A stretch of 64,000 nt of DNA from Bacteroidota bacterium. GTDB lineage: Bacteria; Bacteroidota; Ignavibacteria; UBA10030. Positions 9,215 through 64,000 of the stretch are shown piece after piece; the stretch's first letter is position 1, and each line of letters begins with the position of its first letter. The notes beneath the pieces are model-generated. The model saw only the letters and a program-made list of their open reading frames with translations, searched no databases and was not told where the DNA came from. The stretch lies in contig JBBEEC010000048.1 of the NCBI GenBank assembly GCA_040880975.1, forward strand, positions 23,064-87,063. The letters are read 5' to 3'. Position numbers and translations under genes: made by a program.

Positions 9215-10600
9215 TTACTTTCGCGGAGAATAGAACGCAAGGTGCGATTTCGAATCCATCTCCCGCAGGAGCAACAACCCAAGTTCCCGCGCGTGGTAAT
9301 CTCCCCACTGCGACGATTCGCCGCGCGGAATGCGGCTGCCGGACGGCGTGTGATCCCAGTTGTTGGGACGGTGATAGATTGAGTGTAAAATAAGTCCCTG
9401 GTGCCGGGGGTTTTCTGAAAGATATGGAGGAGAGAGAAGCGTTTGGGCGACCGTCAAGGCGGCATTGACATATCGCAGGCCAGTTTTCCTCTGTCCGTTT
9501 ATTGCATGGTATCTGCCGAGACGAAAGAAACCTTGGGCTGCAATTGCGGCCGCAGAACTGTCAACGGGTTCATAATCATTGAAGGGATCTGCCGGCTTGC
9601 TTCTGTAATCTGCGAGTTGAACGAGCCCTGGAGCACCGGTGTCCCAATAAGGGATCCCATCGGCCGGCATTTCATCTAGATAACAGTCTGCAACGGCGTT
9701 GGCCACATCTGTAAATCTCCGGAGGACGCTGCGTTTGTTCCAATTTGGTTTGAACCCTGACTTGGGTAGGGTGGAAAGAAACTCCAGTTGTTCTGCAAAT
9801 CCCAGAAGGATCCATGCCAGGCCCCGGGTCCAGGTGGAGAACGGAGAATACCCCTGTTGGGTGCTCGGGCACCGATAGGAGCCATTATTGAGATTGAAGA
9901 TCGATTCATGAGCAACACGGCCCCGCACGTCGTACGCATCACGTTCCTTGCCAAAATAGACGCTGTATCGAGCCGTTGTTTCCGCGTGCGTCAGAAGCCG
10001 ATGAAGAAGATCCACCTGAGAATCGCCCTCCGCCATCAGCACATGCCCGAGTTGATAAGCAACAGCAAGAGACCGCAGGGTGCGGACAGTATCGGCAAAG
10101 AGCGAGTGCGGTCCGTTGAAGGAATAAATGTATCCCATACCGCCCGGTAGATCAGTCCATCGCGCAGCCTGCACTGCGCCGCTCACTTTGAGAGCCAGTT
10201 CCAGCTCCCGCCGTTCCGGTTCATTCTCCGGGATGACTCCTTCCTGCATCATTCGCAGGAGATTGCCGTAGGTGCTGACAATATTGAACCCGTGATCATG
10301 AACACCGGTATGGCTGACATGACGGGCCATATGGGCCGTCGTTCCATCGCGGCCAATTTTCAGGAACTGCCGGTCACCGGTTGCTTCGAATTGCAGCAAG
10401 GCCGACCCGAACTGAAAACCGTGAGTCCATTCGGTCCACCCGCGGGAGGTATAGGATCCTGCAACCGTGAAGACCGGTGCTCCGCGGGAGGAATCCCAGG
10501 ATTTTTCGAGGCTCAGTATTTTGCGCGCGGAAAGTTCGAACATCCGCACGACCTGCTGTCTCAGATCGCTTGTTCTCAGCGTCGTATCGATTTTCACCAT
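9215..10600 (-). CDS. glycoside hydrolase family 88-like (unsaturated glucuronyl/uronyl hydrolase)
   Basis: By-eye matches to GH88 signatures: HDHGF, WTRGLAW, DSSAAAIAAQG and a C-terminal WGDYH..E. No signal peptide. Confidence 0.7.
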   Translation of the reverse strand: MVKIDTTLRTSDLRQQVVRMFELSARKILSLEKSWDSSRGAPVFTVAGSYTSRGWTEWTHGFQFGSALLQFEATGDRQFLKIGRDGTTAHMARHVSHTGVHDHGFNIVSTYGNLLRMMQEGVIPENEPERRELELALKVSGAVQAARWTDLPGGMGYIYSFNGPHSLFADTVRTLRSLAVAYQLGHVLMAEGDSQVDLLHRLLTHAETTARYSVYFGKERDAYDVRGRVAHESIFNLNNGSYRCPSTQQGYSPFSTWTRGLAWILLGFAEQLEFLSTLPKSGFKPNWNKRSVLRRFTDVANAVADCYLDEMPADGIPYWDTGAPGLVQLADYRSKPADPFNDYEPVDSSAAAIAAQGFFRLGRYHAINGQRKTGLRYVNAALTVAQTLLSPPYLSENPRHQGLILHSIYHRPNNWDHTPSGSRIPRGESSQWGDYHARELGLLLLREMDSKSHLAFYSPRK

Positions 10601-10603
10601 AGG

Positions 10604-11398
10604 TTAGAGCCTCGGAATGGTAAGACCACCGTCCACATGGATGACCGTTCCGGCAGAGAATGGAACGGAACCGCTCAAAATTGCTTTCACGGTCAACCCC
10701 ACGTCATCCGGTTGACCCCAGCGATTCTGCGGAACAACCCCATCGGCCATGAAGGCGTCGTATTTCTGGCGGACACTTCCTGTCATATCCGTTGCCATGA
10801 TGCCTGGACGAATTTCGCAAACGAGAATTCCCTCAGGGCCCAAGCGAACCGCCCAGAGCTTGGCACACATCGAGAGTCCTGCCTTCGACATGCAGTATTC
10901 TCCCCTGTTTGTGGAAATCAACTCGGCAGACACCGACGAAATAAACACGACCGCAAGCCCGCCCGGAAGAAGCGGTTGCGGGCGCTCTTTGAGCCAGTAG
11001 TTTGCCACTCGCTGCGTCAGAAAATGCGGGCCTTCAAGATTCGTCGTCATGACATGGTTAAACGAATCCTTCCCCATTTCCAGAAGATCCTTGCGTTCCT
11101 TCGGACCAACACCGGCATTGTTGACCAGGGCGTCAATCCGGCCAAATGTCTCCATTGTCTTCTGCACGATTCCTTCGCGGTCTGTCGATTTTCCGACATC
11201 ACCCTTCACGGCAAGAAATTGTTGATCTGATCGTGTTTGCTTTTTCCGGCAGAGATCAACTGTTTCATTCGCGGCAGCTTTATTCGCCGCGTAGTTCACA
11301 ACGATCGAACAACCCATTTCTGCCACGCGCTGGGCAATTCCGCGCCCCAATCCGCGGCTTGCGCCTGTAATAAGAACAACGGGTACTGGTTGTGACAT
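10604..11398 (-). CDS. short-chain dehydrogenase/reductase (SDR)
   Basis: TGASRGLG nucleotide-binding motif, NNAG, and catalytic YCMSK. Confidence 0.9.
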   Translation of the reverse strand: MSQPVPVVLITGASRGLGRGIAQRVAEMGCSIVVNYAANKAAANETVDLCRKKQTRSDQQFLAVKGDVGKSTDREGIVQKTMETFGRIDALVNNAGVGPKERKDLLEMGKDSFNHVMTTNLEGPHFLTQRVANYWLKERPQPLLPGGLAVVFISSVSAELISTNRGEYCMSKAGLSMCAKLWAVRLGPEGILVCEIRPGIMATDMTGSVRQKYDAFMADGVVPQNRWGQPDDVGLTVKAILSGSVPFSAGTVIHVDGGLTIPRL

Positions 11399-11423
11399 GA
11401 TTGATCCTTGGTCGATTACGTGT

Positions 11424-14121: not shown

Positions 14122-16449
14122 TCAGGAATGATTTCCTGAAGGCTCAAATCCCGGCACCCGCCACTGGAAGTGCGGATCGACGTACGGCTCGTCGTTCTCA
14201 TGCCCCCGCATCAGCTCGAGCTTCTTTTTCACCAGCTCGCCGAAGTTCTTGTAATAGATGAACGTCGTTTCCCCGACTCCGGAAACGATCATCCAGTTTG
14301 TCTTCGACGTCTCCCAAAGATCCAGGAGGTCCTTTGCGTTTTCCATCTCATCAAGGACCATTTCCTTCAGGAGAGAGCGGAATTCCTTCTTCGCCGCGGG
14401 ATCCTTGGATTCGAGATAGCCATGCACACAGGAGACCCATTGCGTCACGTTTCGCTGCGTGCGATACCAATTCTTCAGAGCGCGCACCCGATCATACTGG
14501 TCGGTCACACATCCCTGCGAAGCTTTTCCGGATTCTTTCATTCGCTTCAGGAGGGCGAGAGCCTTGTCAAGTTCCGGAAAGAGATCACGGTCCATCACTT
14601 TGACGCAGAACGACGCGTGCGAAGGATCCACGAGGTCAAATCCAACGTCATAACGGAGGTCGATCCTCGTCCTGTTATGCGTCGTTGCAAGCATGAAGTC
14701 CTCATAATATCTGCGCTCGGGCTCCGGGATCGCTTCGATATTGGGAATAATCGGGCGGATGGCGAGCCGATACCACACTCCCCAACCCGCGTAGATCCAA
14801 ATCGGAATGGGGAACGAACGGCAAGCCTCGTCCGAATGCTTCCATACTTTTACCAGGTCGTCAGCGTGATCCGGACCGACCCACTGCGCAGCTTTTTGCT
14901 TCAGGAACGCATCGAGTTGCAAGCCCGGATCGGACTGAAAAGCGCGGACAAGTTCCTGGTTGATATTGCAGGGAGCGAACGATTCAGGGACGGCGCCGCC
15001 CAGTAAAGCGACCGTTTCCACTCCGGCAGCGGCCATGTCCTTTAGTTTATCATAGACGAGCCAAGGGAATGCAATGCCTATCAGAGGCTCGTGATTCCAT
15101 ATGATCCCCGGCGTGAAGTACACGTCGGTTTTCGATCCCTTTTTTTGAAGTTCGCTGATCAGAGGGACTTCCTCTTTTGTAAAGTGGTTATAGAGGGCCA
15201 TTTGATGAATTTCACGAGCCTCCGGATACTTCGGATGTTTATAAGAGAGTCCCCACCCCTTTGTTTGCAGCGAGGAAACTTCCACATCCAATCCATCCTC
15301 CAGTTCCTTCCAAATGTAATCGTGTTCGGCCCAGAAAGGTTCGAGGCGGATCAGGGTGCGGAAGGACGGATTGATCGCACGGCCGGCGTCGCGAAGTGTC
15401 CGCAGATACCGAACGAGGTTTAACGCCGCAGCTTCGGCTATCTCCTTATCCCCTTTCCATTCTCTGATGACGTATCCTCCACCGTTCCGACCGACATACA
15501 TTGAGCTTGTATACTCGAATCCGGCGCCGCTGTCGTTAGACCAAACAGACATATAACTGATCGTCGGAACCTCCTTTAGTAAATTCTGCACCATTTCCGC
15601 ATAATGATCGCGGACGACCGGATGAGCGATCGAAAGGTTAAATCTCGGGCGGAAGCTTCGCAAGGGATGATCGACACGAGCTCCCCGCAAAACCGGATAT
15701 TTTTGCAGAAGTTCGTCCGGAACGGACCGCGGTTCAAACGAAACGATCCCGGGAGTCAGTCCGTACTTCTCTGCAAGCTCAGCATTGGTCTTGAGAAGAT
15801 TGAGGTTTGCCTGGAGGTAGTCCTCATCGTAATACCCTTTCGTCAGCTTGCTGGTGACGAACTGATCAAGCGCGGGGCAATAGGTGTAGAACCTGTGAAG
15901 GAGTTCGCCTTTTGGGCCCTGCTCAAACGGGACGGGGTACGCAAGTCCGTTCACTTCGGCATGCGAGAATCCGAGCCGGGCAAGTTCCTTGAAGTACGTG
16001 GGACGATCAAAATTGCGGACGGACCGGGCGTGCTGGATCAGGAATATATCATAGACGGGCCGCAAATTGGAAAATGCGGGATGAAGGATTCTCCCTTTTG
16101 AGAACTCTTTCACATCCGTGTCCATCCATTCATCCAATGCTTTTCGAAACAACGTGTAAAGCAAATGAGGCCTCGAAGAACGGAATTCCACGCCCTTGCC
16201 TTCCTGCACCCGAAGCATCATCCAGTCCTTCGACGCATCGAGTCCGGGATTGATCGCTTTCCAGGATTTGGCATCTCCCGCAACGCTGACGAGGATCGAA
16301 CGCATCGGAGGGTCGGAAACCGGCGCTGCCGAAAGCGGAACACGCCCGATAAGAGCCTGAAGCTCCTCTGCCACGGTTTGTTCCACCTTATGCCGCGTGG
16401 AATAATGAATGGTTTGCGATTGCGTTAGTGCTTCGCGAAGTGACGGCAT
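14122..16449 (-). CDS. 775-aa cytoplasmic protein of unrecognised family
   Basis: Long uninterrupted ORF with its own AAGGAG Shine-Dalgarno (16455..16460) 5 nt before the ATG. No signal peptide. No motif I can assign. Confidence 0.6.
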   Translation of the reverse strand: MPSLREALTQSQTIHYSTRHKVEQTVAEELQALIGRVPLSAAPVSDPPMRSILVSVAGDAKSWKAINPGLDASKDWMMLRVQEGKGVEFRSSRPHLLYTLFRKALDEWMDTDVKEFSKGRILHPAFSNLRPVYDIFLIQHARSVRNFDRPTYFKELARLGFSHAEVNGLAYPVPFEQGPKGELLHRFYTYCPALDQFVTSKLTKGYYDEDYLQANLNLLKTNAELAEKYGLTPGIVSFEPRSVPDELLQKYPVLRGARVDHPLRSFRPRFNLSIAHPVVRDHYAEMVQNLLKEVPTISYMSVWSNDSGAGFEYTSSMYVGRNGGGYVIREWKGDKEIAEAAALNLVRYLRTLRDAGRAINPSFRTLIRLEPFWAEHDYIWKELEDGLDVEVSSLQTKGWGLSYKHPKYPEAREIHQMALYNHFTKEEVPLISELQKKGSKTDVYFTPGIIWNHEPLIGIAFPWLVYDKLKDMAAAGVETVALLGGAVPESFAPCNINQELVRAFQSDPGLQLDAFLKQKAAQWVGPDHADDLVKVWKHSDEACRSFPIPIWIYAGWGVWYRLAIRPIIPNIEAIPEPERRYYEDFMLATTHNRTRIDLRYDVGFDLVDPSHASFCVKVMDRDLFPELDKALALLKRMKESGKASQGCVTDQYDRVRALKNWYRTQRNVTQWVSCVHGYLESKDPAAKKEFRSLLKEMVLDEMENAKDLLDLWETSKTNWMIVSGVGETTFIYYKNFGELVKKKLELMRGHENDEPYVDPHFQWRVPGFEPSGNHS

Positions 16450-16496
16450 TAAGACTCCTTAGTGGATTTTAGTGAGAAAGAGTGAATCAATCTGTG

Positions 16497-16526
16497 ATAA
16501 TGAAATTAATCGCGTAATCGGGTCAA
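16497..16526 (-). promoter_or_regulatory. candidate sigma70-type promoter (TTGACC-18 nt-CATTAT) for the 14122..16449 unit
   Basis: Minus strand reads CGCTTGACCcgattacgcgattaatttCATTATcac. It lies between repeat-element copy A and the SD/ATG of the 775-aa gene. Confidence 0.4.
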
Positions 16527-16557
16527 GCGACATTCGATGTGATTGCTGATTTCGAAT

Positions 16558-16663
16558 TGCCCGCCCCCGCCCGCCTGACCTTGCTGTACAATCACAGTCG
16601 GGCAGGCCCGACCAAATGCGAGATTCTCGTTTGTCGTTTGGCGAGCGACCGAACTTAAGGGTC
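16558..16663 (+). repeat. GC-rich ~100-bp intergenic repeat element, copy A
   Basis: Colinear with the reverse complement of 56728..56822. Shared blocks are TGCCCGCCCCCGCCCG (16/16), TCACAGTCG (9/9), CGAGATT and GTCGTT. Flanked by GATTTCGAAT (16548..16557) and GATTTCGGAT (16664..16673). Confidence 0.65.
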
Positions 16664-16672
16664 GATTTCGGA

Positions 16673-22909: not shown

Positions 22910-23519
22910 TCACCGCCAAAACACGTGCAGGCGCGCCGTCGCCGCCGCGGATCAAGAGAGGGGCAGCGATAAGCCTGACCGATCCTTCTTTTAATGACCC
23001 CGTGTTGTTGATGTTCGTAATGAGGGGAATTCCTTTTCCCAGACAAATATAATGGACGTCCAATGTGTAGGGAGTATCTGAAGCAATGACAGGGACATCC
23101 ATGCTGACGAAATACTCCGCCGCTTCATTGCTCAAGGGCGGATAGGTCGTGTAAAAATCCTTTGAACCAAAATGAACGTCCCAGCCTGTTTTGATCAGAA
23201 CGCCGACACCCTTCTTCCTGAATTTCTTCCGCACTTCATCGACCGTAATGGCCTTCTTCTGTTCACGGGGAGTGAAGTCGAGAACATGAGCCTCGACAAA
23301 CCAGAGGCGCGGATCGTACTCATCGATGGTCGGTTTACCTTCGAACACGTGAGACGGAGCATCGATATGCGTACCGCTGTGCGTGCCAACACTCACTCTG
23401 GTCACCACACATTTATGGTCCCTGTAATTTGCCGTGGCTTCCAACTTCGTTGCCGGATGCCAGGGGAAATACACCGGCATTTCGTTCGTGAGGGGATGCG
23501 TAAGATCGACGATCTTCAT
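22902..23519 (-). CDS. cyclase-family metal hydrolase (kynurenine formamidase-like)
   Basis: HSGTHIDAPSH motif (HxGTHxDxPxH); 205 aa. Confidence 0.8.
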   Translation of the reverse strand: MKIVDLTHPLTNEMPVYFPWHPATKLEATANYRDHKCVVTRVSVGTHSGTHIDAPSHVFEGKPTIDEYDPRLWFVEAHVLDFTPREQKKAITVDEVRKKFRKKGVGVLIKTGWDVHFGSKDFYTTYPPLSNEAAEYFVSMDVPVIASDTPYTLDVHYICLGKGIPLITNINNTGSLKEGSVRLIAAPLLIRGGDGAPARVLAVID

Positions 23520-23845
23520 AAATCGGTGTCTTCGACGGGTTCAGAAGAGTTCTTCCCACGGTGCGGCTCACCCGTCGTGTCGGGCTTCCACTTGATTGCA
23601 TCGACGGGACATGCCTCAAAGCACAATCCACATCCTGTGCAATTCGGTTCAATGATCACCGCCGTTCGGCCGTATTTGTGTCCGGTACGATCCTCCATGA
23701 CAATCGCATCAAAAAAACACATGGGGGGACATCGGTCACATGCTATACATTCCTCCTCCGCGACGACCGCCACCGGGGCGTACTGACCGTCAAATTGGGG
23801 CGGAAGCGGATTCAATCCCGGATATTTTTTCTTGCTTTCATCCAT
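23516..23845 (-). CDS. 2x[4Fe-4S] ferredoxin-domain protein
   Basis: Two cluster motifs: CIACDRCPPMC and CTGCGLCFEACP. I chose the start at MDESKKK (23845), 10 nt after the upstream stop. The longest ORF (to 23929) would overlap the upstream gene. Confidence 0.8.
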   Translation of the reverse strand: MDESKKKYPGLNPLPPQFDGQYAPVAVVAEEECIACDRCPPMCFFDAIVMEDRTGHKYGRTAVIIEPNCTGCGLCFEACPVDAIKWKPDTTGEPHRGKNSSEPVEDTDL

Positions 23846-23855
23846 ACAACAACCG

Positions 23856-24881
23856 CTAGTTCCCCTTCTTGTTCTTCCAGAGATTCCGGGGCCCCGATTT
23901 AGGCTCTCCGGACCATCGCACAATGTCATCGGGGGGAGTCATTGATGTAAGTGCCTTGCCGCGAATGAGGTCAAGCGAGGCTAGGCCCTTTCGATCAAGG
24001 TATTCATTAACCTCACCGGTAATTCTCTTAATAGAGTCCCAACCGTTCACCATGATAACAGAAAGGATCTGGATCGTGGTGGCTCCCAAGAGGACATATT
24101 TGATCACATCCTCGCCGGTCATGACTCCGCCTGTGGCGCTGATGGGAATCTTGATCGTTTGGGAAGCCTCTGCGATGTGCCGAAACGTGTAATACTTCGC
24201 CCAAGGCCCGCCCACACCCGCGAAATTTCCATGAAGGATGGGACGTTGTGATTCGATGTCCACATCGAATCCGCGAATCCTGTTGCAGAGGGTTACCGCG
24301 TCTGCCTTGCATCCCTCCGCAACGATGCATTGGTGAAGGACGTCGGGCCCGGCGGCCAACTTGACGATGACGGGACATTTCACGGCCTTCCGGACCGCTT
24401 TGATGGCCGCGACAAATGTCGTTTCGAAGTCCAGGCTGCCCGGGCGGTGCGGGGAGGAGATATCGAGCTCGAGGCCGTCCGCCCCGCTCTTCTCGGATTT
24501 CTTCGCAAGGTCGGCCCAATCCTCGGCTGCATCTGCAAAAATGCTGGCGATGATGGGAACCGTTGCGCGTTCTTTGCTCGCTGCAATGAACTCCCAGTAG
24601 TCCTGGAGAGTCCCGCTGTAGCCCTGTTCGTACGAATACAACGTAAATTGTTTGGACCTTCCCTCTATCTGCTTGTCCCAATCCAGCAATTTATAGCGGG
24701 GACGCGGCCAGAAACGCATATGCTCATATTTGTCCGAGCAGGCAGTCTTCAGGATCACTGCGCCGACCCCCTGCTCTTCGGCCAGCTTGATCTGATTTAC
24801 ATCATGGCTGGCGGGGCCGGAAGCGACCATGAGCGGATTCTTCATCGTGAAACCGGCGAACGATGTGTTGAGCGATCTCAT
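23856..24881 (-). CDS. dihydroorotate / dihydropyrimidine dehydrogenase-family flavoprotein (PreA-like TIM barrel)
   Basis: NPLMVASGP, ILKT and ATGGV..GEDV..LGATTIQ FMN-site patterns. The catalytic-loop position reads LDISSPH instead of the usual LSCPN/LSCPH. Confidence 0.75.
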   Translation of the reverse strand: MRSLNTSFAGFTMKNPLMVASGPASHDVNQIKLAEEQGVGAVILKTACSDKYEHMRFWPRPRYKLLDWDKQIEGRSKQFTLYSYEQGYSGTLQDYWEFIAASKERATVPIIASIFADAAEDWADLAKKSEKSGADGLELDISSPHRPGSLDFETTFVAAIKAVRKAVKCPVIVKLAAGPDVLHQCIVAEGCKADAVTLCNRIRGFDVDIESQRPILHGNFAGVGGPWAKYYTFRHIAEASQTIKIPISATGGVMTGEDVIKYVLLGATTIQILSVIMVNGWDSIKRITGEVNEYLDRKGLASLDLIRGKALTSMTPPDDIVRWSGEPKSGPRNLWKNKKGN

Positions 24882-49094: not shown

Positions 49095-51277
49095 GATGAG
49101 ACGTGGATCTCGATGCTGGTGTCGACGGTGGGGATCGGCAGGTCAATTGCCCCCAGCTTCAGGGGTTTTTGCTTGCCATCGATCAGGGCAAACTGATTCT
49201 TGTCGCTCACGACTTTTATGTCAATGTTTTTTCCGCGCAGCTTCACTGTCGCCTTGATTTCGTTTATCCCGGAAAGAAGACGCGGACGCAGGGTCAGCGT
49301 TCGCCGTGAAGGACGAACACCAAGCATATGGTGCACGAAGAGAGCAACAAATTCGGCCCATGTCCAGACGACAATTCCCACGGGGGGAAGCGGCGGCGTC
49401 GGGCGCTCGCCGTAAAATTCAAACCAAGCCCCTGCGTTGGCGCCCTGGCATCCGAGCAACCATTCGAGCGCCCGCCAGACCTTCTCATCGTTTCCGGCCT
49501 CGTAATAGGCCCTCGCGATAAAAAGGGTCGCAAACGGCCAGGGTCCCGGGGAATCAGGCTCCGATGTTACGTGATAGCGGCCGTATCCGCCGTATTTCCA
49601 GCGCTGGTTCCAGAGTTCCTCAACCGATTGCAGGGTTTTCGATGCCAGATCGCTGCGCGGATCGACAACACCATAGGCAATGGGGAGAACCACCGAGCTG
49701 TCGGGATCACAATACGAAACTGATTCGACGTTCAGCGGCATGCCCTCCGGCATGGATTTTCGATTCACAGGCTCCATGGTCCGCTGGACCTCTCCGTTTG
49801 CCAGACGACGCTTGATCAATCTCCCCTTGTCGACCAGAGAATACTTTCCGTGGCCGATATACGCCTTCCGCATTTTCTCCGAAGCCGCACGCCATTCCCG
49901 GGACTTACCGGAATCGTTCATGTGCAGGGCCATCTCCGCCGCCAGGTTAAGTCCCAGGATATTCCAGAACTGATAGGAGTTTTCATATCCCTCCCGTATT
50001 CCGAATCCCGGGTCACGTTCCCAGTATTCACGCGAATTCTTCAGAAGGCCGATCGCGGGGTCCCGGAATTCGGGCCTGAGGACGTAGTCGGCAACATTTT
50101 TTATCTTCGGCCACTGCGTATGCAGAATCGTGTCATCGCCGGACCACACCCAATGCATGTAAAGGGCATACAGCAATTCGCCGTTCTGGTCAAGTTCCAT
50201 TGTCTCCGGCGGCCGATGACGGCTTGCATCGACGGTCTTCCCGGTTTCATCAACGGATTGTGAGAGTATCCTGGAGAGCAAGGATCCCGACACATCGGTC
50301 AAACCCACCATCGCAGAACCGGCGGCAACCATGCTTTGATCGCGCACCCATTCGAGATTATACTGCCAGATGCTGCCGTCCATTTTGCCCGAGCGGGAAA
50401 CAGCGCTTCGGAGGCCGCTGGCTGAAACCCGGTACAAATGATCCAACCCTGCATGTCCGAAATTCACCGAGGTGACACCTTTCCAGTACTGGGCAGCCTC
50501 GCGTTTCAGAGAGTCCAATCCCCTGGATTCGAGAATATGCCGTTCTGTGTCAAGAGTGAGAACAAACGTGGCAGACTGTTCACCGCCGGGAGGAATCGAT
50601 CCCAACACCGCCGTCATGTGCCGGTCGCCGACATTGATGGGCTTCAGGCAAAAAAGGCGCAAGGTCTTGTAGCCTCTTGCCGTCAGGGTCCCATGGACCC
50701 TGTCAACATCGTACTCGTCAAAGTACATGAGATTCGGATACAGCAGCACGGTCAACCGAACATCAGAGGCCCCTGTCGCCGGCGCCTTGACGCTGACGGT
50801 CCTGACGACTGCGGCGTGACTGGGGGGAACAAAGTACTCCTCGCGAACGATGCAACCACCCGCGTTCCATTCAGCGACAACGGTCGGCACCCCATCGGGA
50901 TATTCCCATCGTACCGTTGAAGAGGTTGGGTCCGGGACATACGAAGCCGCCCCATGAGCCACGGTGCATCGGGAATTTTGAAGTCCGCGTTCGGGGTGGT
51001 ACAAATACGTGCTGATCTTTCGTCCGAAATGCTCCGGGGACATCACCATAAGTCCGCAATGCGTACCCGCGGCGGCATCTTTCGCCGTCTGCAGTGCGGC
51101 AAAGATCAATCCATTCCCGAGGAGAAAGTATTCGGTACCTGAGTTATTCGACTGATAATCCTGATGGAGAAGTTGGTCGTCGGGTCCGGCATCGGCATGA
51201 AGCCTGGCGGAGGGAAGCGATGACAGGACAGCTCCCGTTCCGAGGGTTTTGAGGAAATGCCTGCGTTCCAGTTTCAT
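49091..51277 (-). CDS. Tat-exported (alpha/alpha)6-toroid glycoside hydrolase-like protein (GH15-related by eye)
   Basis: Start MKLERRHFLKTLGTGAV carries a twin-arginine motif (RRHFLK). WVRDQS motif and W-rich helical C-terminal half. The longest ORF (to 51373) would overlap the upstream gene. Confidence 0.5.
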   Translation of the reverse strand: MKLERRHFLKTLGTGAVLSSLPSARLHADAGPDDQLLHQDYQSNNSGTEYFLLGNGLIFAALQTAKDAAAGTHCGLMVMSPEHFGRKISTYLYHPERGLQNSRCTVAHGAASYVPDPTSSTVRWEYPDGVPTVVAEWNAGGCIVREEYFVPPSHAAVVRTVSVKAPATGASDVRLTVLLYPNLMYFDEYDVDRVHGTLTARGYKTLRLFCLKPINVGDRHMTAVLGSIPPGGEQSATFVLTLDTERHILESRGLDSLKREAAQYWKGVTSVNFGHAGLDHLYRVSASGLRSAVSRSGKMDGSIWQYNLEWVRDQSMVAAGSAMVGLTDVSGSLLSRILSQSVDETGKTVDASRHRPPETMELDQNGELLYALYMHWVWSGDDTILHTQWPKIKNVADYVLRPEFRDPAIGLLKNSREYWERDPGFGIREGYENSYQFWNILGLNLAAEMALHMNDSGKSREWRAASEKMRKAYIGHGKYSLVDKGRLIKRRLANGEVQRTMEPVNRKSMPEGMPLNVESVSYCDPDSSVVLPIAYGVVDPRSDLASKTLQSVEELWNQRWKYGGYGRYHVTSEPDSPGPWPFATLFIARAYYEAGNDEKVWRALEWLLGCQGANAGAWFEFYGERPTPPLPPVGIVVWTWAEFVALFVHHMLGVRPSRRTLTLRPRLLSGINEIKATVKLRGKNIDIKVVSDKNQFALIDGKQKPLKLGAIDLPIPTVDTSIEIHVSS

Positions 51278-51293
51278 GGGAGGATCTTTCGGT

Positions 51294-52094
51294 TTATGGC
51301 TCGCGAAGATAGGATCGGAGAATATCCACGTTCTTTTTGGAATTCTCGATGAGGGGGAGGCAGTGGGTTTCAATCGTGACGTGGTTTACGATCTGATCGC
51401 GGACGATCGCCGCGATCTGGCCTTTCCAATCGATGGCGCCCTCTCCGACTGGAACACACTGAATGAGGGATCCCTTTCGCGTGTCTTTAACGTGGACATT
51501 GAAGATGACTCCCTTGACCGCCTCATATCCTTCGGGGTAGGGTAGTTCTGCGGTTCCATAGCCGTTGCAGGGATCCCAATTCGCACCCAGGTTCGGCATG
51601 CCGACCCTGCGTATAAGCGCTGCTGTATTGGAGCCGGAGTCGGCCCAGAATCCCGGCTCGTTTTCGATCGCAATCTTCACTCCGCCTTTTTGGGCAAGCT
51701 CGGATGCCTGACGCATATACTCGAGCCAGTCGTTCACGCGGCCTTCCGGTTCTCCGGCTTCACGCCGAAATCCGAAGACAATGATCAGCTTGGTGCCGAG
51801 TTGCCCCGCCATATCGATCGTACGCGGAAGGGTGTCTTTGAGTTCGGCAAGGATCTCGTTCTTCTTTGAAAGATGATGTTTAAAAATGCCGGGTGAGAGG
51901 GCAGAAATGGTCACTCCGCGGTTCGCGGCAAGGCCAAGGACTTCCCGGAATTCCTCTGGGTCCACCGCTGGCACTCTCCCTGATCGAAGCACTCTTAGTT
52001 CATAAATCGATAGGCCCCATTCCGTTCCATAACGGAGGGCCTCTTTGAAGTCGGGTGATATTTCATCGCTGACGATACCAAGGGCCAGGTTCAC
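51294..52094 (-). CDS. sugar phosphate isomerase/epimerase (xylose-isomerase-like TIM barrel, AP_endonuc_2)
   Basis: 266 aa. Motifs KIAIENEPG and NWDPCN. Confidence 0.8.
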   Translation of the reverse strand: MNLALGIVSDEISPDFKEALRYGTEWGLSIYELRVLRSGRVPAVDPEEFREVLGLAANRGVTISALSPGIFKHHLSKKNEILAELKDTLPRTIDMAGQLGTKLIIVFGFRREAGEPEGRVNDWLEYMRQASELAQKGGVKIAIENEPGFWADSGSNTAALIRRVGMPNLGANWDPCNGYGTAELPYPEGYEAVKGVIFNVHVKDTRKGSLIQCVPVGEGAIDWKGQIAAIVRDQIVNHVTIETHCLPLIENSKKNVDILRSYLREP

Positions 52095-52885
52095 GATTCG
52101 CGCTTCTTTCTGGGCTTTTTATGCCCAAGCAGGCGTGAAATGAGTTCCCCGTTCTCCGCCAGGATCCCAATAAGGCGGTTGGCATTCCGCTTATCCTTCT
52201 TATAGCGTTCTGAAGGAATGGCAGTCATCAGTGAGGCGACGACGCTGTTGTTGTGGTCAAAGATGGGAACCGCAATGGCGCAAAGGTCCTCTTTGTATTC
52301 TCCGTCCACAATGGAGAATCCATCTTTGCGGATCTGCGCGAACCTGCGTTTAAGCCTCGCGGCACTTGTAATAGTCGAATCCGTGAATTTGCGAAGCCCC
52401 TTGCGCTGAATAATGCCGTCCATCTCCCCGTCATCCAAACCTGCGGCAAGGACCAATCCCGTTGCGGTGCAATGAATCGGGGACCGATGTCCGAGACGGG
52501 TCACCATTTTCCAGACTTCCGGAGTGTCGACATGATCGATGATGATGACGTCGTCCTGATCCAGAATCGCAAGATAGAAGCTTTCGCGGGTCTGGTGTGC
52601 GAGTTTTTGGAGATGCGGGTGGGCAATGCTTTTGAGGTCAATACGGGAGAGCGCCGCGTGCCCCCACTCGAGGAGCTTCATCCCGAGGGAAAAGAGCTTC
52701 CTCTCGCGGTCTTCCACCACCACCGCGTGTTCCTGGAGGGTGTGCAGAATGCGAAACAGCGTGCTTTTAGGAACACGCAGTTCTTCTGCGAGCTGGGCGA
52801 GGGACCGGCCCTGCGGCGAAAGCGAAAGGATCTCCAGCAACCGGACAGTGCGATCGATCGCGGGGACGGTGTAATCGACTGGCAT
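52091..52885 (-). CDS. IclR-family transcriptional regulator
   Basis: N-terminal wHTH (IDRTVRLLEILS...LAQLAEELRVPKSTLFRILHTL) plus a C-terminal IclR effector domain of typical length. Confidence 0.9.
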   Translation of the reverse strand: MPVDYTVPAIDRTVRLLEILSLSPQGRSLAQLAEELRVPKSTLFRILHTLQEHAVVVEDRERKLFSLGMKLLEWGHAALSRIDLKSIAHPHLQKLAHQTRESFYLAILDQDDVIIIDHVDTPEVWKMVTRLGHRSPIHCTATGLVLAAGLDDGEMDGIIQRKGLRKFTDSTITSAARLKRRFAQIRKDGFSIVDGEYKEDLCAIAVPIFDHNNSVVASLMTAIPSERYKKDKRNANRLIGILAENGELISRLLGHKKPRKKRES

Positions 52886-52916
52886 GTCGTTTTGCTAATA
52901 GAATGGTGTTTAATTT

Positions 52917-52945
52917 AGTATAAAGCTAATCCGCTCCTTTGTCAA
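52917..52945 (-). promoter_or_regulatory. near-consensus sigma70 promoter (TTGACA-17 nt-TATACT) upstream of the IclR gene
   Basis: Minus strand reads GCTTGACAaaggagcggattagcttTATACTaaat. The -10 element lies 32 nt upstream of the IclR ATG. Confidence 0.55.
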
Positions 52946-52961
52946 GCGCTTTCCATGAAGA

Positions 52962-54266
52962 TCAAACGATCCCGGAACCAGACCCCGAACCCGACGGCCT
53001 CTCAGCAGACTTTTGTTCCCGATACCCGCTCGCACGGTAAACATCTATCGGATCGGCGGCTCCCCCGCCGGAAACTCTCGCCTTCCGCAGAATTGGCGAA
53101 ACATCCGTTCGGAATGATTCCTTTAATGTCCGATGGGCCATGAGCGGATCATTCTGTTGCTGGCAAGCCCTCAATTTCTTCCGATCGACAAGCAGCGCCT
53201 GCACATAGGCCCGCTGGATCTCTTCCGCAGAACAGATAAGTGATTCGATGGGATCGGTGATGTTGTGGCTCTGATCGATCATGTACGCCGGCCGGAATTC
53301 TCCTGCCGGTCCACCCGTCGAAGCACTGACCAACTCGTGGAATATCAGAAAAAGCTGAAACGGCTTGATGCTTCCCGCATCCAGATCGTCATCTCCATAC
53401 TTGCTGTCATTGAAATGAAATCCGCCGAGCTTCTTGACCTGAATGAGTCGAGAAACAATCATTTCAATGTTCGTGTTTGGCAGGTGATGTCCGAGATCAA
53501 CGAGACCAAGCGCTTGCGGACCCAGTTGCATTGTCGCGTGATAGACCGTTCCCCAATCATTGACGACTGTTGAGTAGAAGGCAGGCTCATACGGTTTGTA
53601 TTCGAGAAACAGCTTCCAGGAAGCAGGAAGGGTTGAATAGATCTCATGCGTGCTTTCGAGGTAACGTTCAAAACTTGCCCGAAAATCAGATTGCCCCGGA
53701 AGGTTGGCTCCATCGCCAATCCACACCGTGAGCGCCTCGGACCCCAGTTGTTTCCCAATTTCAATACACTCTTTGTTATGGGCGATGGCGTGCCGCCGCA
53801 CCGCGGGATCCGTGTGGGTCAGGCTTCCATACTTGTAACTCACCTTTTGGCCCGGCTGATCCTGAAACGTGTTGGAATTCATGGCATCAAATCCCAATCC
53901 CAACGAAGCAGCATACTCTTTCAGTTCGTGGGTATCGGACGGCTTGTCCCAGGGAATATGGAGAGACACGCGGGGAGTCACCCGAGTCAACTGCTGAATC
54001 GTCGCACAGTCCGCGAACTTTTCAAAAATGTTCCGCGGTTCGCCACCCCCCGCGAATCTTGCAAACCTGGTACCTCCGGTCCCCACGCCCCATGAGGGCA
54101 ACGCAACCTCAAAGGACACGGCCAGGCGAGTCACAGCGTCGATGTCAATCGATCTGCGCTCCAATTGACTCCGAAGGGCTTCATAGTCTTTTGCAAGAGA
54201 AGCAGCGCTTTCCTTGTTTTTTTCCTCCACGAGGGAAGATGGAATTTTGAATCCGAAATCGTTCAT
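52962..54266 (-). CDS. L-rhamnose isomerase-like sugar isomerase (Pseudomonas stutzeri / actinobacterial RhaI type TIM barrel)
   Basis: 434 aa. N-terminal ALPSWGVGTGGTRFARF pattern typical of this isomerase type, judged by eye. Confidence 0.65.
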   Translation of the reverse strand: MNDFGFKIPSSLVEEKNKESAASLAKDYEALRSQLERRSIDIDAVTRLAVSFEVALPSWGVGTGGTRFARFAGGGEPRNIFEKFADCATIQQLTRVTPRVSLHIPWDKPSDTHELKEYAASLGLGFDAMNSNTFQDQPGQKVSYKYGSLTHTDPAVRRHAIAHNKECIEIGKQLGSEALTVWIGDGANLPGQSDFRASFERYLESTHEIYSTLPASWKLFLEYKPYEPAFYSTVVNDWGTVYHATMQLGPQALGLVDLGHHLPNTNIEMIVSRLIQVKKLGGFHFNDSKYGDDDLDAGSIKPFQLFLIFHELVSASTGGPAGEFRPAYMIDQSHNITDPIESLICSAEEIQRAYVQALLVDRKKLRACQQQNDPLMAHRTLKESFRTDVSPILRKARVSGGGAADPIDVYRASGYREQKSAERPSGSGSGSGIV

Positions 54267-56696: not shown

Positions 56697-56701
56697 GGGT
56701 T

Positions 56702-56729
56702 GGTTTCAGGTTTCAGGTTTCAGGTTTCC
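56702..56729. repeat. heptamer microsatellite (GGTTTCA)x3 + GGTTTCC; a further 1.7 units at 56823..56834
   Basis: Read directly. It lies immediately upstream (minus sense) of the ATG at 56696. The two tracts bracket repeat-element copy B. Confidence 0.8.
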
Positions 56730-56822
56730 CGCCCGAACGACCGCATGAGATTCAATCTCGTTCGGTCGCCCGCCCGAACGACTGTGAAGAGCTATCATCG
56801 TTCAGTCGGGCGGGGGCGGGCA
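56728..56822 (-). repeat. GC-rich ~95-bp intergenic repeat element, copy B (inverted relative to copy A)
   Basis: Contains a 14-mer direct repeat CCCGCCCGAACGAC (56728..56741 and 56769..56782). Also a 31-nt near-palindrome CGACCGCATGAGATT-C-AATCTCGTTCGGTCG (56738..56768) and CGGGCGGGGGCGGGCA (56807..56822). Flanked by identical 13-mers CAGGTTTCAGGTT (56714..56726 and 56821..56833). Confidence 0.65.
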
Positions 56823-56860
56823 GGTTTCAGGTTCTTGATCTTCTCTCCCACGAATTGGCA

Positions 56861-63083: not shown

Positions 63084-63127
63084 GGTATCAGGGCCTCGTT
63101 ATGAGTGATCGGGGCATGTTAGATGCA

Positions 63128-64000
63128 TTACAGTGAAATCCTCGCCTCTTCAAAGTCGATCTTCTGATTGATGACGCTTCTCAGGAGCCTGCTCACCTTG
63201 GTTTCGTCCGGGTCTCTAAATATCGATTGCATTTCTTCGGGGGGAGGAAGCCGCTTGACAATTTCACGCCGGTACCGTGTTGCGTTGATGCACTCGACCA
63301 AATGCTCTGAAAATCGACGGATGGTGTCCTTTTTGGTTTCCCCCGGAACCCGTTGCGGCCAGATATCGAAATTCCAGAGACCGTCGAATCCTTTCCAGTA
63401 AAGCCAGTATTCGGCTTCCAGTACTTCCTGGAAATTGTCGTTCCCCGGAATGTGGTCGTTATCCCAATGCTTCCGGTTATCATTCAAATCGATCTGACGC
63501 AAGATTCCAAAATCCAATGCAAGGCAAATGCTTTCTGCGAGTTTTCCGCCTGCGATATGTGCATGGCCATACTCAATATTCTGAACAATGCGTCCGCGTG
63601 TGCGTGCGAGAATTCCGTGGAGACGTTCAAAGAACGCGTCCGCACGAAGGCCTGGCTCGTCCTTTAAAAGACGGTTCCGAAGCCGTTTTCTGATGCGGTC
63701 TTCCGTTGTCCTTGCGATGAAAAGGCCATGGACGGTTTCGCGTACGAACATGTCCTCCGCCGGATCGCCGGATTTTGGTTCGAGGCAAATCTGACAATCG
63801 GGTACAGCTTCGAGGACCTCGATATATCCGTCCACGAGAAGATTCCACGCCTGCGAATAATCACAAAGAAAAAGCCCATTGGAGCCGTCGTTTCCCTGCC
63901 AGAGAACGGAGTGCCGGCAGCCGAGGGGTTTCTTGAGTTTCTCCATCACAGGTCGAAGGGCGTTGTTCAGTTCCATTGCCCGTTTGACGTTGTCGATGGC
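63128..64000 (-). CDS. xylose-isomerase-family TIM-barrel sugar isomerase, 5'-truncated by the window edge
   Basis: Motifs CLEPKSGDP (compare EPKP.EP), NIEYGHAHIAG, IDLNDN and FDIWPQR. The frame stays open upstream of the Met at 63976 to position 64000 (AIDNVKRA-MELNN). Confidence 0.65.
   Translation of the reverse strand, partial: AIDNVKRAMELNNALRPVMEKLKKPLGCRHSVLWQGNDGSNGLFLCDYSQAWNLLVDGYIEVLEAVPDCQICLEPKSGDPAEDMFVRETVHGLFIARTTEDRIRKRLRNRLLKDEPGLRADAFFERLHGILARTRGRIVQNIEYGHAHIAGGKLAESICLALDFGILRQIDLNDNRKHWDNDHIPGNDNFQEVLEAEYWLYWKGFDGLWNFDIWPQRVPGETKKDTIRRFSEHLVECINATRYRREIVKRLPPPEEMQSIFRDPDETKVSRLLRSVINQKIDFEEARISL

Follow-up and report, generated by a model that had tools for sequence, protein, structure and literature searches.

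Gene content and organisation of the island

We describe a 64,000-nucleotide (nt) stretch, referred to as the window, of a Bacteroidota genome of the class Ignavibacteria (assembly GCA_040880975.1; 3.4 Mb in 83 contigs, 100% complete; here G000), which corresponds to positions 23064-87063 of contig JBBEEC010000048.1 (C48:23064-87063). Positions 9215-64000 are occupied by an island of 43 genes, all on the minus strand, as are all long chains of open reading frames in the window. We report that this island is one coherent catabolic unit, inherited or lost as a block and not a mosaic of characterised operons, and that its gene content suggests breakdown of a uronate-containing glycan.

Only three spacers in the island exceed 50 nt (223, 76 and 164 nt) and 20 junctions overlap, 16 of these by 4 nt; this recount gives the same picture as an initial annotation, made from the nucleotide sequence alone, of about 43 consecutive minus-strand genes with three gaps of more than 50 nt. 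From the start of the IclR gene (52885) down to the end of the URO-D gene (16673), 28 genes cover 36.2 kb with spacers of at most approximately 21 nt. Past position 64000 the array goes on for five further genes, up to window coordinate 69268, where the contig ends. The first of the five is the gene cut at 64000, which encodes a 397-amino-acid (aa) TIM-barrel protein; the others encode a class V aminotransferase, an orphan of 526 aa, a PhyH dioxygenase and a further URO-D protein. The G+C content of the island (53.6%) equals that of the genome (53.0%), and a recent foreign origin was therefore rejected.

The 76-nt spacer carries a sigma-70-like site, TTGACA-17-TATACT, on the minus (coding) strand at 52945-52917 (11 of 12 matches), just upstream of the IclR gene. 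Another, TTGACC-18-CATTAT (minus strand, 16526-16497, 9 of 12 matches), lies in the 223-nt spacer upstream of the 775-aa gene. Scans for sigma-70 promoters and terminators gave no enrichment over shuffled sequences, and only these two in-spacer sites were used, as hints. Since promoter-like sites sit in two of the spacers, we expect at least three transcripts in the window, i.e. one for the symporter/short-chain dehydrogenase (SDR)/acetoacetate decarboxylase (ADC)/rhamnose isomerase part, one for the 28-gene IclR-led part, and one for the five genes from the 775-aa gene to the GH88-like gene.

Proteins were assigned to families using Pfam and NCBIfam model cut-offs, sequence searches against the PDB and Foldseek searches with AlphaFold2 models, and N-termini were judged by eye for export signals. 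Five proteins (775, 617, 598, 252 and 264 aa) have no Pfam match and four (759, 781 and 760 aa, and the product of the gene cut at 64000) have a marginal match only; for the 252-, 264- and 526-aa proteins Pfam searches up to E 0.5 gave nothing usable. Pfam upheld the family calls of the initial annotation for two heparinase II/III-like proteins, GH88 (weakly), GH38, two BNR propellers, three sodium:solute symporters (SSS) and the M20, CN-hydrolase, amidohydrolase, cyclase, aminotransferase and kinase/aldolase genes. Sec-type signals are predicted for the 759-, 617-, 598- and 781-aa proteins and both propellers, and twin-arginine signals for the 715-aa lyase and the 760-aa toroid, which would use internal starts, probably M44 and M33. 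The GH38, GH88-like and 775-aa proteins have no signal peptide, in line with the division into exported and cytoplasmic enzymes that had been proposed.

Conservation of the island as a unit

All island proteins were compared with the contigs of relatives (genomes numbered G001 onwards) using tblastn. The same gene order, at 50-95% amino-acid identity, was found in G001, a member of the same genus, in genomes of other genera (G003, G006, G015, G019, G050, G090, G094 and G095) and in another family (G039). The fullest version, in G090, spans approximately 80 kb on a single strand of a fen contig of 492 kb, and reduced versions of approximately 35 kb are present in G022 and G098.

Presence and absence were scored in 86 genomes of the family. 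The 617-aa family and the GH88-like gene were each found in 29 genomes, the latter nearly coinciding with the island-positive genomes, and the 775-aa family in 31, including all 29 that have the 617-aa lyase-fold protein. All three markers occur together in 28 genomes and none of them in 55; the three exceptions are 69-90% complete genomes. In many genomes the GH88-like gene sits on a contig apart from the main locus, yet it co-occurs with it. Moreover, an empty site was identified in G017, G064, G005 and G042, where the orthologous nuo operon, with nuoA as the flank, directly adjoins what in G006 is the block past the far end of the island; NuoD is 70-77% identical in the island-free relatives.

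Association of the island genes was also seen at larger distances. In 79 loci retrieved around homologs of the 617-aa protein (numbered with L), the propeller gene is adjacent in 69, and the 316-aa PfkB kinase and GH38 genes are adjacent in 51 and 49, respectively. Three distant Bacteroidetes loci, L100, L103 and L104, retain the pairing of the 264-aa SDR with the GH88-like gene. Their SDR and/or GH88-like genes lie immediately next to one or two 617-aa homologs, in the company of URO-D and Gfo/Idh/MocA genes; a xylose-isomerase-like TIM-barrel gene is also present in L103 and L104, and a 775-aa homolog in L100 and L103. Just a 617-aa homolog, GH38 and a 775-aa homolog make up L102, and L103 has an extra GH47 alpha-mannosidase gene. 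Thus, in the distant loci L100 and L102-L104 genes from opposite ends of the island sit together. Groundwater, fens, soils and lake sediments are the sources of the metagenome-assembled genomes (MAGs) that hold the closest loci, which are labelled Ignavibacteriales, Ignavibacteriota or "Bacteroidota"; more distant loci belong to KSB1, Acidobacteriota, Calditrichota and Bacteroidetes. No cultured organism was seen among the best 80 loci, and our literature search found no published description of this locus.

Stretches from twelve relatives were used to separate core from accessory genes. The core, present in nearly all versions, comprises the genes for the 775-aa protein and its paralog, URO-D, the MetE-like protein, the 617-aa protein with its propeller, the 316-aa PfkB kinase, the 337-aa Gfo/Idh/MocA protein, the 760-aa six-hairpin protein, the 266-aa TIM-barrel protein, an SSS symporter and the class V aminotransferase. 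Frequent additions are the genes for the 759-aa protein, GH38, the run of DeoC, Gfo, DUF455, FAH, NSAR, PreA-like, cyclase and M20 genes, the 781-aa protein, the aminotransferase/Amidohydro_2 pair, the 715-aa lyase and a second lyase-propeller pair. Confined, among these stretches, to genera g1/g6 (this genome, G001 and G006) are the block of ADC, D-2-hydroxyacid dehydrogenase (2-HADH) and SDR genes, the 397-aa TIM-barrel gene and PhyH; it is also only there that the GH88-like and SDR genes are physically joined to the rest of the locus. Other genera have instead FGGY kinase, ATP-binding cassette (ABC) system, LarA-like, DUF4432, GH3, ROK, glycerate kinase, EamA, GHMP sugar-1-kinase and nucleotidyl-transferase genes.

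According to the initial annotation the gene set matched no known pathway, and homology searches might reveal it to be a mosaic of already characterised operons. Synteny, co-occurrence and the empty site argue for one unit.

Predicted lyases and glycosidases

The 715-aa protein is predicted to be a true heparinase II/III-type lyase. It scores 61.9 bits for Hepar_II_III_C (cut-off 24) and is homologous to solved lyases, with PDB matches to the PL15 enzyme Atu3025 (68 bits) and the PL35 enzyme 8KHW (56 bits). For the 759-aa protein, whose orthologs are 64-69% identical in relatives, the sole PDB match, 4FNV, is at chance level (E 0.056).

The 617-aa protein belongs by sequence to no Pfam family, and its family, with more than 2000 homolog clusters, each "hypothetical" or nameless, is found in about 490 species genomes. 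Its AlphaFold2 model, computed from ten orthologs and paralogs (pLDDT 70.6, pTM 0.75), shows a helical toroid followed by an antiparallel beta-sandwich, with residues 365-441 poorly modelled. The top 44 Foldseek matches in the PDB are all PL8, PL12, PL15, PL17, PL21 or PL35 lyases, with probabilities of 0.63-1.00 but TM values of just 0.27-0.37. A uronate-containing glycan, as had been proposed from the heparinase-like and GH88 genes, is the best-supported substrate class, the approximately 600-aa orphans too having a predicted lyase fold.

Described initially as an orphan, the 775-aa protein has a glycosidase fold by predicted structure (AlphaFold2; pLDDT 70, pTM 0.77). It matches three-domain glycosidases, the best Foldseek match being the GH138 alpha-galacturonidase acting on rhamnogalacturonan II (RG-II), 6HZE (E 4e-13, TMq 0.53), followed by GH20, GH84, GH89, GH67 and GH115. 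It has no Pfam or NCBIfam match and resembles GH138, GH67, GH115 and GH89 in fold only, at 8-13% identity, which suggests that it may work like this structural class while belonging to none of these families.

For the 760-aa protein, the Atlas structure matches GH15-, GH94- and rhamnosidase-type six-hairpin clusters (TM 0.65-0.93), in line with the GH15-like toroid of the initial annotation; the sole PDB sequence match, the GH116-type 8IC6, is at chance level (E 0.011). No PDB sequence match was obtained for the 781-aa protein or for the 526-aa orphan. The GH88-like protein is a marginal member of its family (Pfam 27.7 bits, cut-off 26.6) with full-length homology to unsaturated glucuronyl hydrolase (UGL), aligning with Bacillus UGL 2AHF over residues 48-439 (37 bits). 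The GH38 protein has the N-terminal, middle and C-terminal domains of its family, four domains in all, and its orthologs were found only in island-carrying relatives.

Continuation of the locus and transport

By synteny, the island continues on an 11.5-kb contig (C77) of the same genome, and a further contig (C75, 1947 bp) lies entirely inside a gene for a TonB-dependent receptor. In G006 the C77 and C75 genes follow in this order on one contig, immediately upstream of the PhyH gene. Next come two blocks, one with ABC-permease-like genes that is homologous to C36 of G000 and, after it, one matching the start of C43. A TonB-dependent receptor gene without susD stands at the head of the locus in G090 and G006, its ortholog in G000 being the gene on C75. 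The full locus in relatives also includes a PorV-like protein, parts of the type IX secretion system type and ABC-permease-like genes.

It had been noted that uptake relied on SSS symporters only, with no SusC/D, TonB or ABC genes. The absence of SusD holds: PF07980 gave no match in the whole genome, the control being positive in Bacteroides thetaiotaomicron. The absence of TonB and ABC genes does not, since both are part of the full locus by synteny; it is an artefact of the window edge because the locus continues on other contigs. Compared with polysaccharide-utilisation loci (PULs) of the Sus type, adjacent genes for a SusC-like receptor and a SusD-like lipoprotein were not found, and exported and cytoplasmic carbohydrate-active enzymes (CAZymes) were found in one array with a regulator and transporters, i.e. 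lyases, GH38, the GH88-like and six-hairpin GH-like proteins, the IclR regulator and three SSS symporters. Symporters 2 and 3 are 64% identical, and for symporter 1 approximately 12 membrane helices are predicted; in relatives the CN-hydrolase gene adjoins that of this 593-aa symporter. Sulfatases, reported as missing from the island, are absent from the whole genome, and the absence is thus not specific to the island.

Sugar, amino and accessory enzymes

The rhamnose isomerase aligns with the Pseudomonas stutzeri enzyme 2HCV (617 bits, E 1e-184; residues 6-434 to 4-430), belongs to the P. stutzeri type and is the sole island enzyme that closely matches a characterised one. It was found in 11 of the 86 family genomes, all island-positive, and inside the island wherever the contig permits a check. 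Of the earlier proposal that this gene points to a deoxyhexose, the rhamnose branch stands; a core role does not, and we regard the enzyme as accessory because only 11 of 29 island genomes have it.

The 370-aa enolase-superfamily protein belongs to the NSAR/OSBS subgroup (TIGR01928) and the neighbouring M20 protein passes TIGR01910; the pair fits the N-acyl or amino substituents envisaged initially. The two class I aldolases are 34% identical, and the gene for the 277-aa aldolase overlaps that for the 308-aa kinase by 4 nt. Several enzymes score below equivalog cut-offs: the 264-aa SDR (KduD and Lra1), the 341-aa flavoprotein (NCBIfam "DHODH-like", 176 bits), the FAH-family hydrolase (2,4-didehydro-3-deoxy-L-rhamnonate hydrolase, 204 bits against a cut-off of 500) and the class III aminotransferase (GSA-aminomutase and GntE, approximately 300 bits). 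We did not adopt any of the sub-threshold NCBIfam equivalogs (KduD, Lra1, LacC, IolC, HemL and the rhamnonate-pathway hydrolase) as an identification, and the aldolases, SDRs, FAH, Amidohydro_2 and class III aminotransferase proteins keep putative, generic names.

The class III aminotransferase shows the highest conservation among island genes (76-95% identity in relatives), the 373-aa Gfo/Idh/MocA protein is 76-93% identical and the Amidohydro_2 protein 68-90%; the sole PDB match of the latter (E 0.007) and the weak bacterioferritin matches of the DUF455 protein are at chance level. The true start of the ferredoxin gene is probably internal, giving approximately 109 aa (relatives align over 96-109 aa). 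The gene for the 331-aa propeller overlaps that for the 617-aa protein. The OYE-like gene is present in some relatives only, and the D-2-hydroxyacid dehydrogenase gene was observed in g1 and g6 only. An early guess that the 264-aa familyless protein is a metallo-beta-lactamase-type lactonase was dropped as unsupported.

Past the window, the class V aminotransferase-fold protein, of the pyridoxal phosphate (PLP) type (window coordinates 64403-65743; L009:1467-2807), has a hydrophobic, twin-arginine-like N-terminus (KRKQFIK...) and is predicted to be exported. It is kept in the core of the relatives' loci, and it is uncommon for a glycan locus to encode a PLP enzyme of the periplasm.

Putative methyl-handling genes

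The 348-aa URO-D protein scores approximately 93 bits against MtaA/CmuA models with cut-offs of 235-400. In a phmmer alignment with MtaA 4AY7 the His is kept and the two zinc-binding Cys are replaced by Gly and Thr, i.e. the MtaA-type zinc site (H-x-C ... C) is not present. Because both zinc-binding Cys are replaced, the protein is not a canonical coenzyme M-type MtaA; a non-thiol acceptor such as tetrahydrofolate would presumably not require zinc.

In six relatives (G003, G050, G090, G094, G095 and G098) the URO-D ortholog is followed by genes for a 233-aa B12-binding protein and MtaB (PF12176, 518 bits), then by the 775-aa ortholog and glycerate kinase. G015 and G039 have an MtaB-like gene only, that of G039 on a stretch lacking both the URO-D and the 775-aa neighbours, and G022 an MtaC-like gene only. 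MtaC-MtaB genes are absent between the URO-D and 775-aa genes in G006, G075 and this window, where the 223-nt spacer takes their place, and in the window no MtaB plus corrinoid protein genes stand beside the MtaA-like gene. Comparison of gene orders thus indicates that MtaC-MtaB was lost from the island in this lineage. A possible MtaB remnant in the spacer (25 residues, E 0.009, two-sequence target, overlapping the URO-D end) was unconvincing and was rejected. Outside the island, this genome has a paralogous set (C34:38654-44581; L131) of MtaC-like, MtaB-like and URO-D genes, the former two 53% and 45% identical to the relatives' in-island genes, with an FGGY kinase gene a few genes off.

The full locus holds three URO-D genes and a MetE-like gene, and is thus rich in the UROD/MetE superfamily. 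Judged by homology, the URO-D, MetE-like and MtaBC proteins probably handle methyl groups or methanol of a methyl-decorated sugar. The mlp methyltransferase clusters were considered as a match for these genes and rejected, since they serve a different metabolism, that of methyl-sulfur or methyl-selenide compounds (Kountz and Balskus, PMC10418091).

Feature list and neighbouring genes

Features of the island and its continuation are listed in Table 1.

Table 1. Features of the island (window coordinates) and of contig C77
Feature	Position	Strand	Basis
GH88-like unsaturated-uronyl hydrolase, 461 aa	9215..10600	-	Pfam GH88
SDR oxidoreductase, 264 aa	10604..11398	-	Pfam adh_short
Carbon-nitrogen hydrolase, 303 aa	11424..12335	-	Pfam CN_hydrolase, 104 bits
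Sodium:solute symporter 1, 593 aa	12332..14113	-	Pfam SSF, 122 bits
Cytoplasmic glycosidase-fold protein, 775 aa (predicted)	14122..16449	-	AlphaFold2 model, Foldseek
223-nt spacer between URO-D and 775-aa genes	16450..16672	.
URO-D/MtaA-like protein, 348 aa	16673..17719	-	Pfam URO-D, 156 bits
PfkB kinase, 1-PFK/LacC "hexose kinase" subfamily, 308 aa	17729..18655	-	TIGR03168, 245 bits (cut-off 216)
DeoC/LacD-family class I aldolase, 277 aa	18652..19485	-	Pfam DeoC, 102 bits
Exported protein, weakly heparinase II/III-like, 759 aa	19502..21781	-	Hepar_II_III_N, 23.3 bits (cut-off 22)
M20 ArgE/DapE-type deacylase, 375 aa	21782..22909	-	TIGR01910, 250 bits (cut-off 218)
Cyclase/formamidase-like hydrolase, 205 aa	22902..23519	-	Pfam Cyclase, 103 bits
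2x[4Fe-4S] ferredoxin	23516..23929	-	Pfam Fer4 family matches
DHODH/PreA-like flavoprotein, 341 aa	23856..24881	-	Pfam DHO_dh, 109 bits
Enolase superfamily, NSAR/OSBS subgroup, 370 aa	24878..25990	-	TIGR01928, 254.5 bits (cut-off 200.65)
FAH-family hydrolase, 298 aa	25987..26883	-	Pfam FAA_hydrolase, 239 bits
DUF455 ferritin-like protein, probably di-iron, 405 aa	26880..28097	-	Pfam DUF455, 91.7 bits
Gfo/Idh/MocA oxidoreductase, 373 aa	28119..29240	-	Pfam
Second DeoC/LacD-family class I aldolase, 280 aa	29237..30079	-	Pfam DeoC, 121 bits
Cytoplasmic GH38 alpha-mannosidase, 907 aa	30083..32806	-	Four GH38 Pfam domains over threshold
PfkB sugar or sugar-acid kinase, 316 aa	32797..33747	-	Pfam PfkB, 170 bits
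Exported polysaccharide-lyase-fold protein, 617 aa (predicted)	33752..35605	-	AlphaFold2 model, Foldseek
Exported BNR/Asp-box propeller, 331 aa	35602..36597	-	Pfam BNR, Sortilin-Vps10
Exported paralog of 617-aa protein, 598 aa	36600..38396	-	45% identity to 617-aa protein
Second exported BNR propeller, 327 aa	38375..39358	-	Pfam; 37% identity to first propeller
Exported protein, 781 aa	39348..41693	-	Sec signal; Pfam GH76 and C5-epimerase matches sub-threshold only
Amidohydro_2 protein, long N-terminal extension, 543 aa	41690..43321	-	Pfam, 74 bits
Class III aminotransferase, 415 aa	43339..44586	-	Pfam, 144 bits
Heparinase II/III-type lyase, twin-arginine export, 715 aa (predicted)	44590..46737	-	Hepar_II_III_C; SRRDFL motif; start near 46608
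Gfo/Idh/MocA oxidoreductase, 337 aa	46605..47618	-	Pfam; core even in reduced loci
OYE-like flavin oxidoreductase, 489 aa, accessory	47625..49094	-	Pfam Oxidored_FMN, 63 bits
Six-hairpin glycosidase-like protein, twin-arginine export, 760 aa (predicted)	49091..51373	-	Atlas structure; RRHFLK motif; start near 51277
Xylose-isomerase-like TIM-barrel protein, 266 aa	51294..52094	-	Pfam AP_endonuc_2, 107 bits
IclR-family regulator	52091..52885	-	Pfam IclR_C, 145 bits; first gene of 36-kb gapless stretch
76-nt spacer	52886..52961	.	Best sigma-70-like site of island
L-rhamnose isomerase, P. stutzeri type, 434 aa, accessory	52962..54266	-	2HCV, 617 bits
D-2-hydroxyacid dehydrogenase, 310 aa	54269..55201	-	Pfam, 198 bits
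Acetoacetate-decarboxylase-family protein, 247 aa	55198..55941	-	Pfam ADC, 183 bits
Familyless protein, 252 aa	55938..56696	-	No Pfam match even at E 0.1
164-nt spacer	56697..56860	.
SDR oxidoreductase, 261 aa	56861..57646	-	Pfam
Familyless protein, 264 aa	57643..58437	-	No Pfam match
SDR oxidoreductase, 255 aa	58434..59201	-	Pfam
Sodium:solute symporter 2, 632 aa	59233..61131	-	Pfam SSF, 158 bits
Sodium:solute symporter 3, 635 aa	61176..63083	-	Pfam SSF, 142 bits
Xylose-isomerase-like TIM-barrel protein, 397 aa	63128..64000, on to 64321	-	AP_endonuc_2, 29.8 bits (below cut-off 31.1)
C77: URO-D
C77: 623-aa paralog of 775-aa protein
C77: MetE-like protein
C77: 1310-aa protein, PL17-like			Alginate_lyase, Hepar_II_III_C, CBM9
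C77: PorV-like protein
C77: tail of 864-aa protein

Between the island and nuoA, a PAS histidine kinase gene (window 8066-9166) has no adjacent response regulator gene. It is a lineage-specific insertion, because G006 and G075 have nuoA next after the GH88-like gene and show no match to the kinase gene. A gene for a four-helix protein of the 23S-rRNA-intervening-sequence type lies between nuoD and nuoE (window 4331-4693), and a second nuo operon, at 43-47% identity, is present on C1 of G000. Elsewhere in the genome, C44:80427-85128 encodes an SSS symporter and a distant GH38 paralog (about 23-26% identity), with a nucleotidyl-transferase homolog approximately 13 kb past that pair (C44:97880-98996); this cluster may be a second mannoside system. 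In the "Chromatiales" MAG that carries L102 (L102:4097-7294), the trio of 617-aa, GH38 and 775-aa homologs adjoins a gene for a 1066-aa fusion of Peptidase_MA, a PD40 propeller and Omp85. Finally, single in-frame TGA or TAG codons were seen in orthologs, including those of GH38 and NuoD (G019:C39, G006:C6, and nuoD matches in G062, G064 and G005); these could be assembly errors or pseudogenes.

Interpretation and alternative explanations

We consider it likely that the island is part of a modular, Sus-less glycan-utilisation supercluster of uncultured Ignavibacteriales whose substrate is an unsulfated, uronate-containing heteroglycan. With similar confidence, the full supercluster is estimated at approximately 85-90 kb and about 60 or more genes, of which the window covers about two thirds. 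Mannose is probably a constituent of the substrate. The strongest chain of predicted steps leads from exported lyases to the GH88-like hydrolase and on to GH38 and the 775-aa putative exo-glycosidase, which fits a uronate linked to alpha-mannose. Two observations support this motif: mannosidases turn up repeatedly, as GH38 in this island and in L102 and as GH47 in L103, and co-occurrence of the GH88-like gene with the island is strict. As to the polymer, a glucuronomannan-like or xanthan/acetan-like motif, with uronate linked to mannose and with or without rhamnose, is our leading but tentative guess.

According to the proposed scheme, exported lyase-fold enzymes would cut an unsulfated acidic heteroglycan at 4-linked uronates. 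The cutting set would comprise the PL15/PL35-like 715-aa protein, the 617- and 598-aa proteins with their propellers, the 759-aa protein and the PL17-like 1310-aa protein with CBM9 on C77, aided by further exported proteins that resemble six-hairpin glycosidases, the 760-aa protein and possibly the 781-aa one. Fragments would enter via the TonB-dependent receptor outside the window and cross the inner membrane through the three SSS symporters, and in relatives also through an ABC system. In the cytoplasm the GH88-like hydrolase would take off the unsaturated uronate, GH38 the alpha-mannose, and the 775-aa enzyme a further residue, possibly an alpha-linked uronate or hexosamine. The products may then be fed into the SDRs and the two PfkB kinase/class I aldolase pairs, the Gfo/Idh/MocA and xylose-isomerase-TIM enzymes for keto-sugars, the accessory rhamnose isomerase module, and the NSAR/M20 block for N-acyl-amino-acid substituents. 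URO-D and the MetE-like protein would probably handle methyl groups or methanol, in relatives with the adjacent MtaC-MtaB. The IclR regulator, with its strong promoter-like site, would head the central 28-gene unit.

A farther-reaching version appears speculative to us, namely that the island and its approximately 500 relatives in species genomes encode the full breakdown of an abundant yet unrecognised type of acidic heteroglycan, decorated with methyl groups, of anoxic soils, fens and aquifers, via at least four new CAZyme families and an oxygen-independent corrinoid methyl route. The four families would be those of the 617-aa protein with its propeller, the 775-aa fold, and the 781- and 526-aa proteins; that they jointly have this role is likewise conjectural. 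Equally doubtful is the corresponding methyl route, in which URO-D, MetE-like and MtaBC proteins would remove or capture sugar methyls inside the glycan locus.

Several points speak against a catabolic supercluster for one heteroglycan. All enzyme assignments were made by homology or fold; the 617- and 775-aa models are of moderate confidence only (pLDDT about 70), and the TM values of the former are low. The methyl-handling step is weakly grounded for the window because the zinc-binding Cys are lacking and MtaBC has been lost. The joins C48-C77-C75-C36-C43 come from synteny with G006 and not from the assembly. The co-occurrence counts overstate the number of independent events because the island genomes are kin (11-13 genera, non-independent samples). 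At least three transcription units are likely, and MtaBC, FGGY, LarA, GH3, ROK and glycerate kinase genes occur in other genera's loci and not here; because the content is modular, "one pathway, one substrate" is too simple.

This modularity can also be read as the trace of small independent operons for sugars, sugar acids and amino acids that came to lie side by side through leading-strand clustering and share no common substrate. The set of accessory blocks (rhamnose isomerase, ADC/SDR, OYE, MtaBC, GH3 and ROK) varies from genus to genus, the spacers, two of the three with promoter-like sites, are suggestive of separate transcripts, and SDR, PfkB, FAH and M20 are generic families. However, approximately 30 core genes, 50-70% identical, stand in the same order in different genera and also in G039, a member of another family, genes of opposite island ends re-associate in other phyla, the three markers share one presence/absence pattern even when unlinked, and the whole block is cleanly missing in relatives. 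Only the rhamnose isomerase closely matches a characterised enzyme and no sub-block equals a textbook operon, and we therefore regard a mosaic as unlikely. The substrate could instead be a pool of small molecules, such as plant phenolic or other glycosides or glucuronides (e.g. methoxylated flavonoid or lignan glycosides) or humic-bound sugars, which we judge improbable; equally improbable are its means, i.e. deglycosylation, corrinoid O-demethylation, ene-reduction and C-C hydrolases. Gfo/Idh/MocA and xylose-isomerase-TIM pairs form the core of C-glycoside and 3-keto-glycoside routes, and the gene set includes OYE-like, PreA-like (with a ferredoxin), FAH, Amidohydro_2, ADC-family and PhyH proteins, as well as MtaB/MtaC with URO-D in relatives and a rhamnosidase-like six-hairpin fold (760 aa) with rhamnose isomerase; the MAGs come from fen, soil and groundwater. 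Yet five or six exported lyase-fold proteins, one of 1310 aa with CBM9 and encoded next to PorV-like and TonB-receptor genes, suggest an extracellular polymer, the GH88-like gene co-occurs strictly with the island, MtaB is of the methanol-type and not the aryl-ether-type family, and OYE, ADC and PhyH are accessory.

That the island serves to make or modify a surface glycan of the cell itself, and not to degrade an external one, seems to us very improbable. The relatives' locus does hold GHMP sugar-1-kinase and nucleotidyl-transferase genes, and aminotransferases and epimerase-like proteins occur in biosynthetic clusters too, but among the window genes scanned there was no match to a glycosyltransferase, flippase, polymerase or chain-length regulator, and a set of symporters, lyases, exo-glycosidases, kinase/aldolase pairs and an IclR regulator is characteristic of catabolism. 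With respect to the preferred glycan-degradation reading, several known substrates were rejected: heparin, other sulfated glycosaminoglycans and ulvan because the genome is without a sulfatase; alginate alone because it leaves GH38, the 775-aa and six-hairpin proteins and rhamnose isomerase unexplained; classical pectin because no PL1, PL9, GH28 or CE8, and inositol and sulfoquinovose because no IolD/IolB or YihQ/YihS, were found among the window genes scanned.

What Ignavibacteriales contribute to carbon turnover in the fens, groundwater, lake sediments and soils where they are common has been deduced mostly from generic CAZyme counts. Here a block of approximately 60 genes is present in a third of one family. 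Uncharacterised enzyme families are unusually numerous in it, with five proteins that are familyless and several that are marginal. Identification of the substrate would assign function to several large "hypothetical" families at once, would probably add lyase and glycosidase families to CAZy, and would test whether anaerobes couple glycan breakdown to corrinoid-dependent methyl handling, which bears on the source of methanol and hence of methylotrophic methane in wetlands. Clean presence/absence and conserved order make the block a well-defined target for expression and assay.

Comparison with known systems

In xanthan degradation, known from Bacillus sp. GL1, the gut Ruminococcaceae UCG13, Bacteroides intestinalis and Microbacterium XT11, an exported uronate lyase leaves an unsaturated glucuronate end, on which GH88 acts, followed by GH38 and then by GH3 on the glucan. 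The island follows the same logic, with GH3 present in relatives' loci. It differs in having no PL8, GH5 or GH9, lyases that are PL15/PL17-like or of an unannotated family, no SusD, approximately 40 further genes (keto-sugar, amino, N-acyl and methyl-handling) and a fen, soil and groundwater habitat.

The RG-II PULs of B. thetaiotaomicron (Ndeh et al. 2017; GH138 structure 6HZE) resemble the island in their very large size, many one-off families, abundant propeller and six-hairpin enzymes and a hyper-decorated acidic glycan with methyl-ether sugars and rhamnose; GH138 is also the best structural match of the 775-aa protein, at fold level only (about 10% identity). Unlike these PULs, the island has no SusC/D pair, and no GH28, PL1, GH78, GH95, GH105 or GH106 was found among the window genes scanned.

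An IclR gene in a lyase locus, an SDR beside the hydrolase and PfkB recall KdgR-controlled pectin and alginate catabolism (IclR, KduD/DehR SDR and KdgK PfkB). In contrast to the KdgR system, the aldolases are of the DeoC/LacD class I type and the SDR is under the KduD cut-off; neither KduI nor 2-keto-3-deoxy-6-phosphogluconate (KDPG) aldolase was found among the window genes scanned, the rest of the genome not having been searched for them. The relatives resemble MtaABC systems in having URO-D, B12-binding protein and MtaB genes in a row inside the locus, of which this genome keeps URO-D; unlike in methanogens and acetogens, the relatives' genes form part of a glycan locus, and the host is not a methanogen.

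Finally, the two PfkB/DeoC-family pairs, one overlapping by 4 nt, are comparable to LacC/LacD and to YihV/YihT of the sulfo-Embden-Meyerhof-Parnas (sulfo-EMP) pathway, although LacAB, YihS and YihQ equivalents are lacking and the aldolases are under every equivalog cut-off. PfkB/DeoC pairs such as YihV/YihT can process 6-deoxy ketoses, and by analogy this precedent suggests that such a pair would suit rhamnulose.

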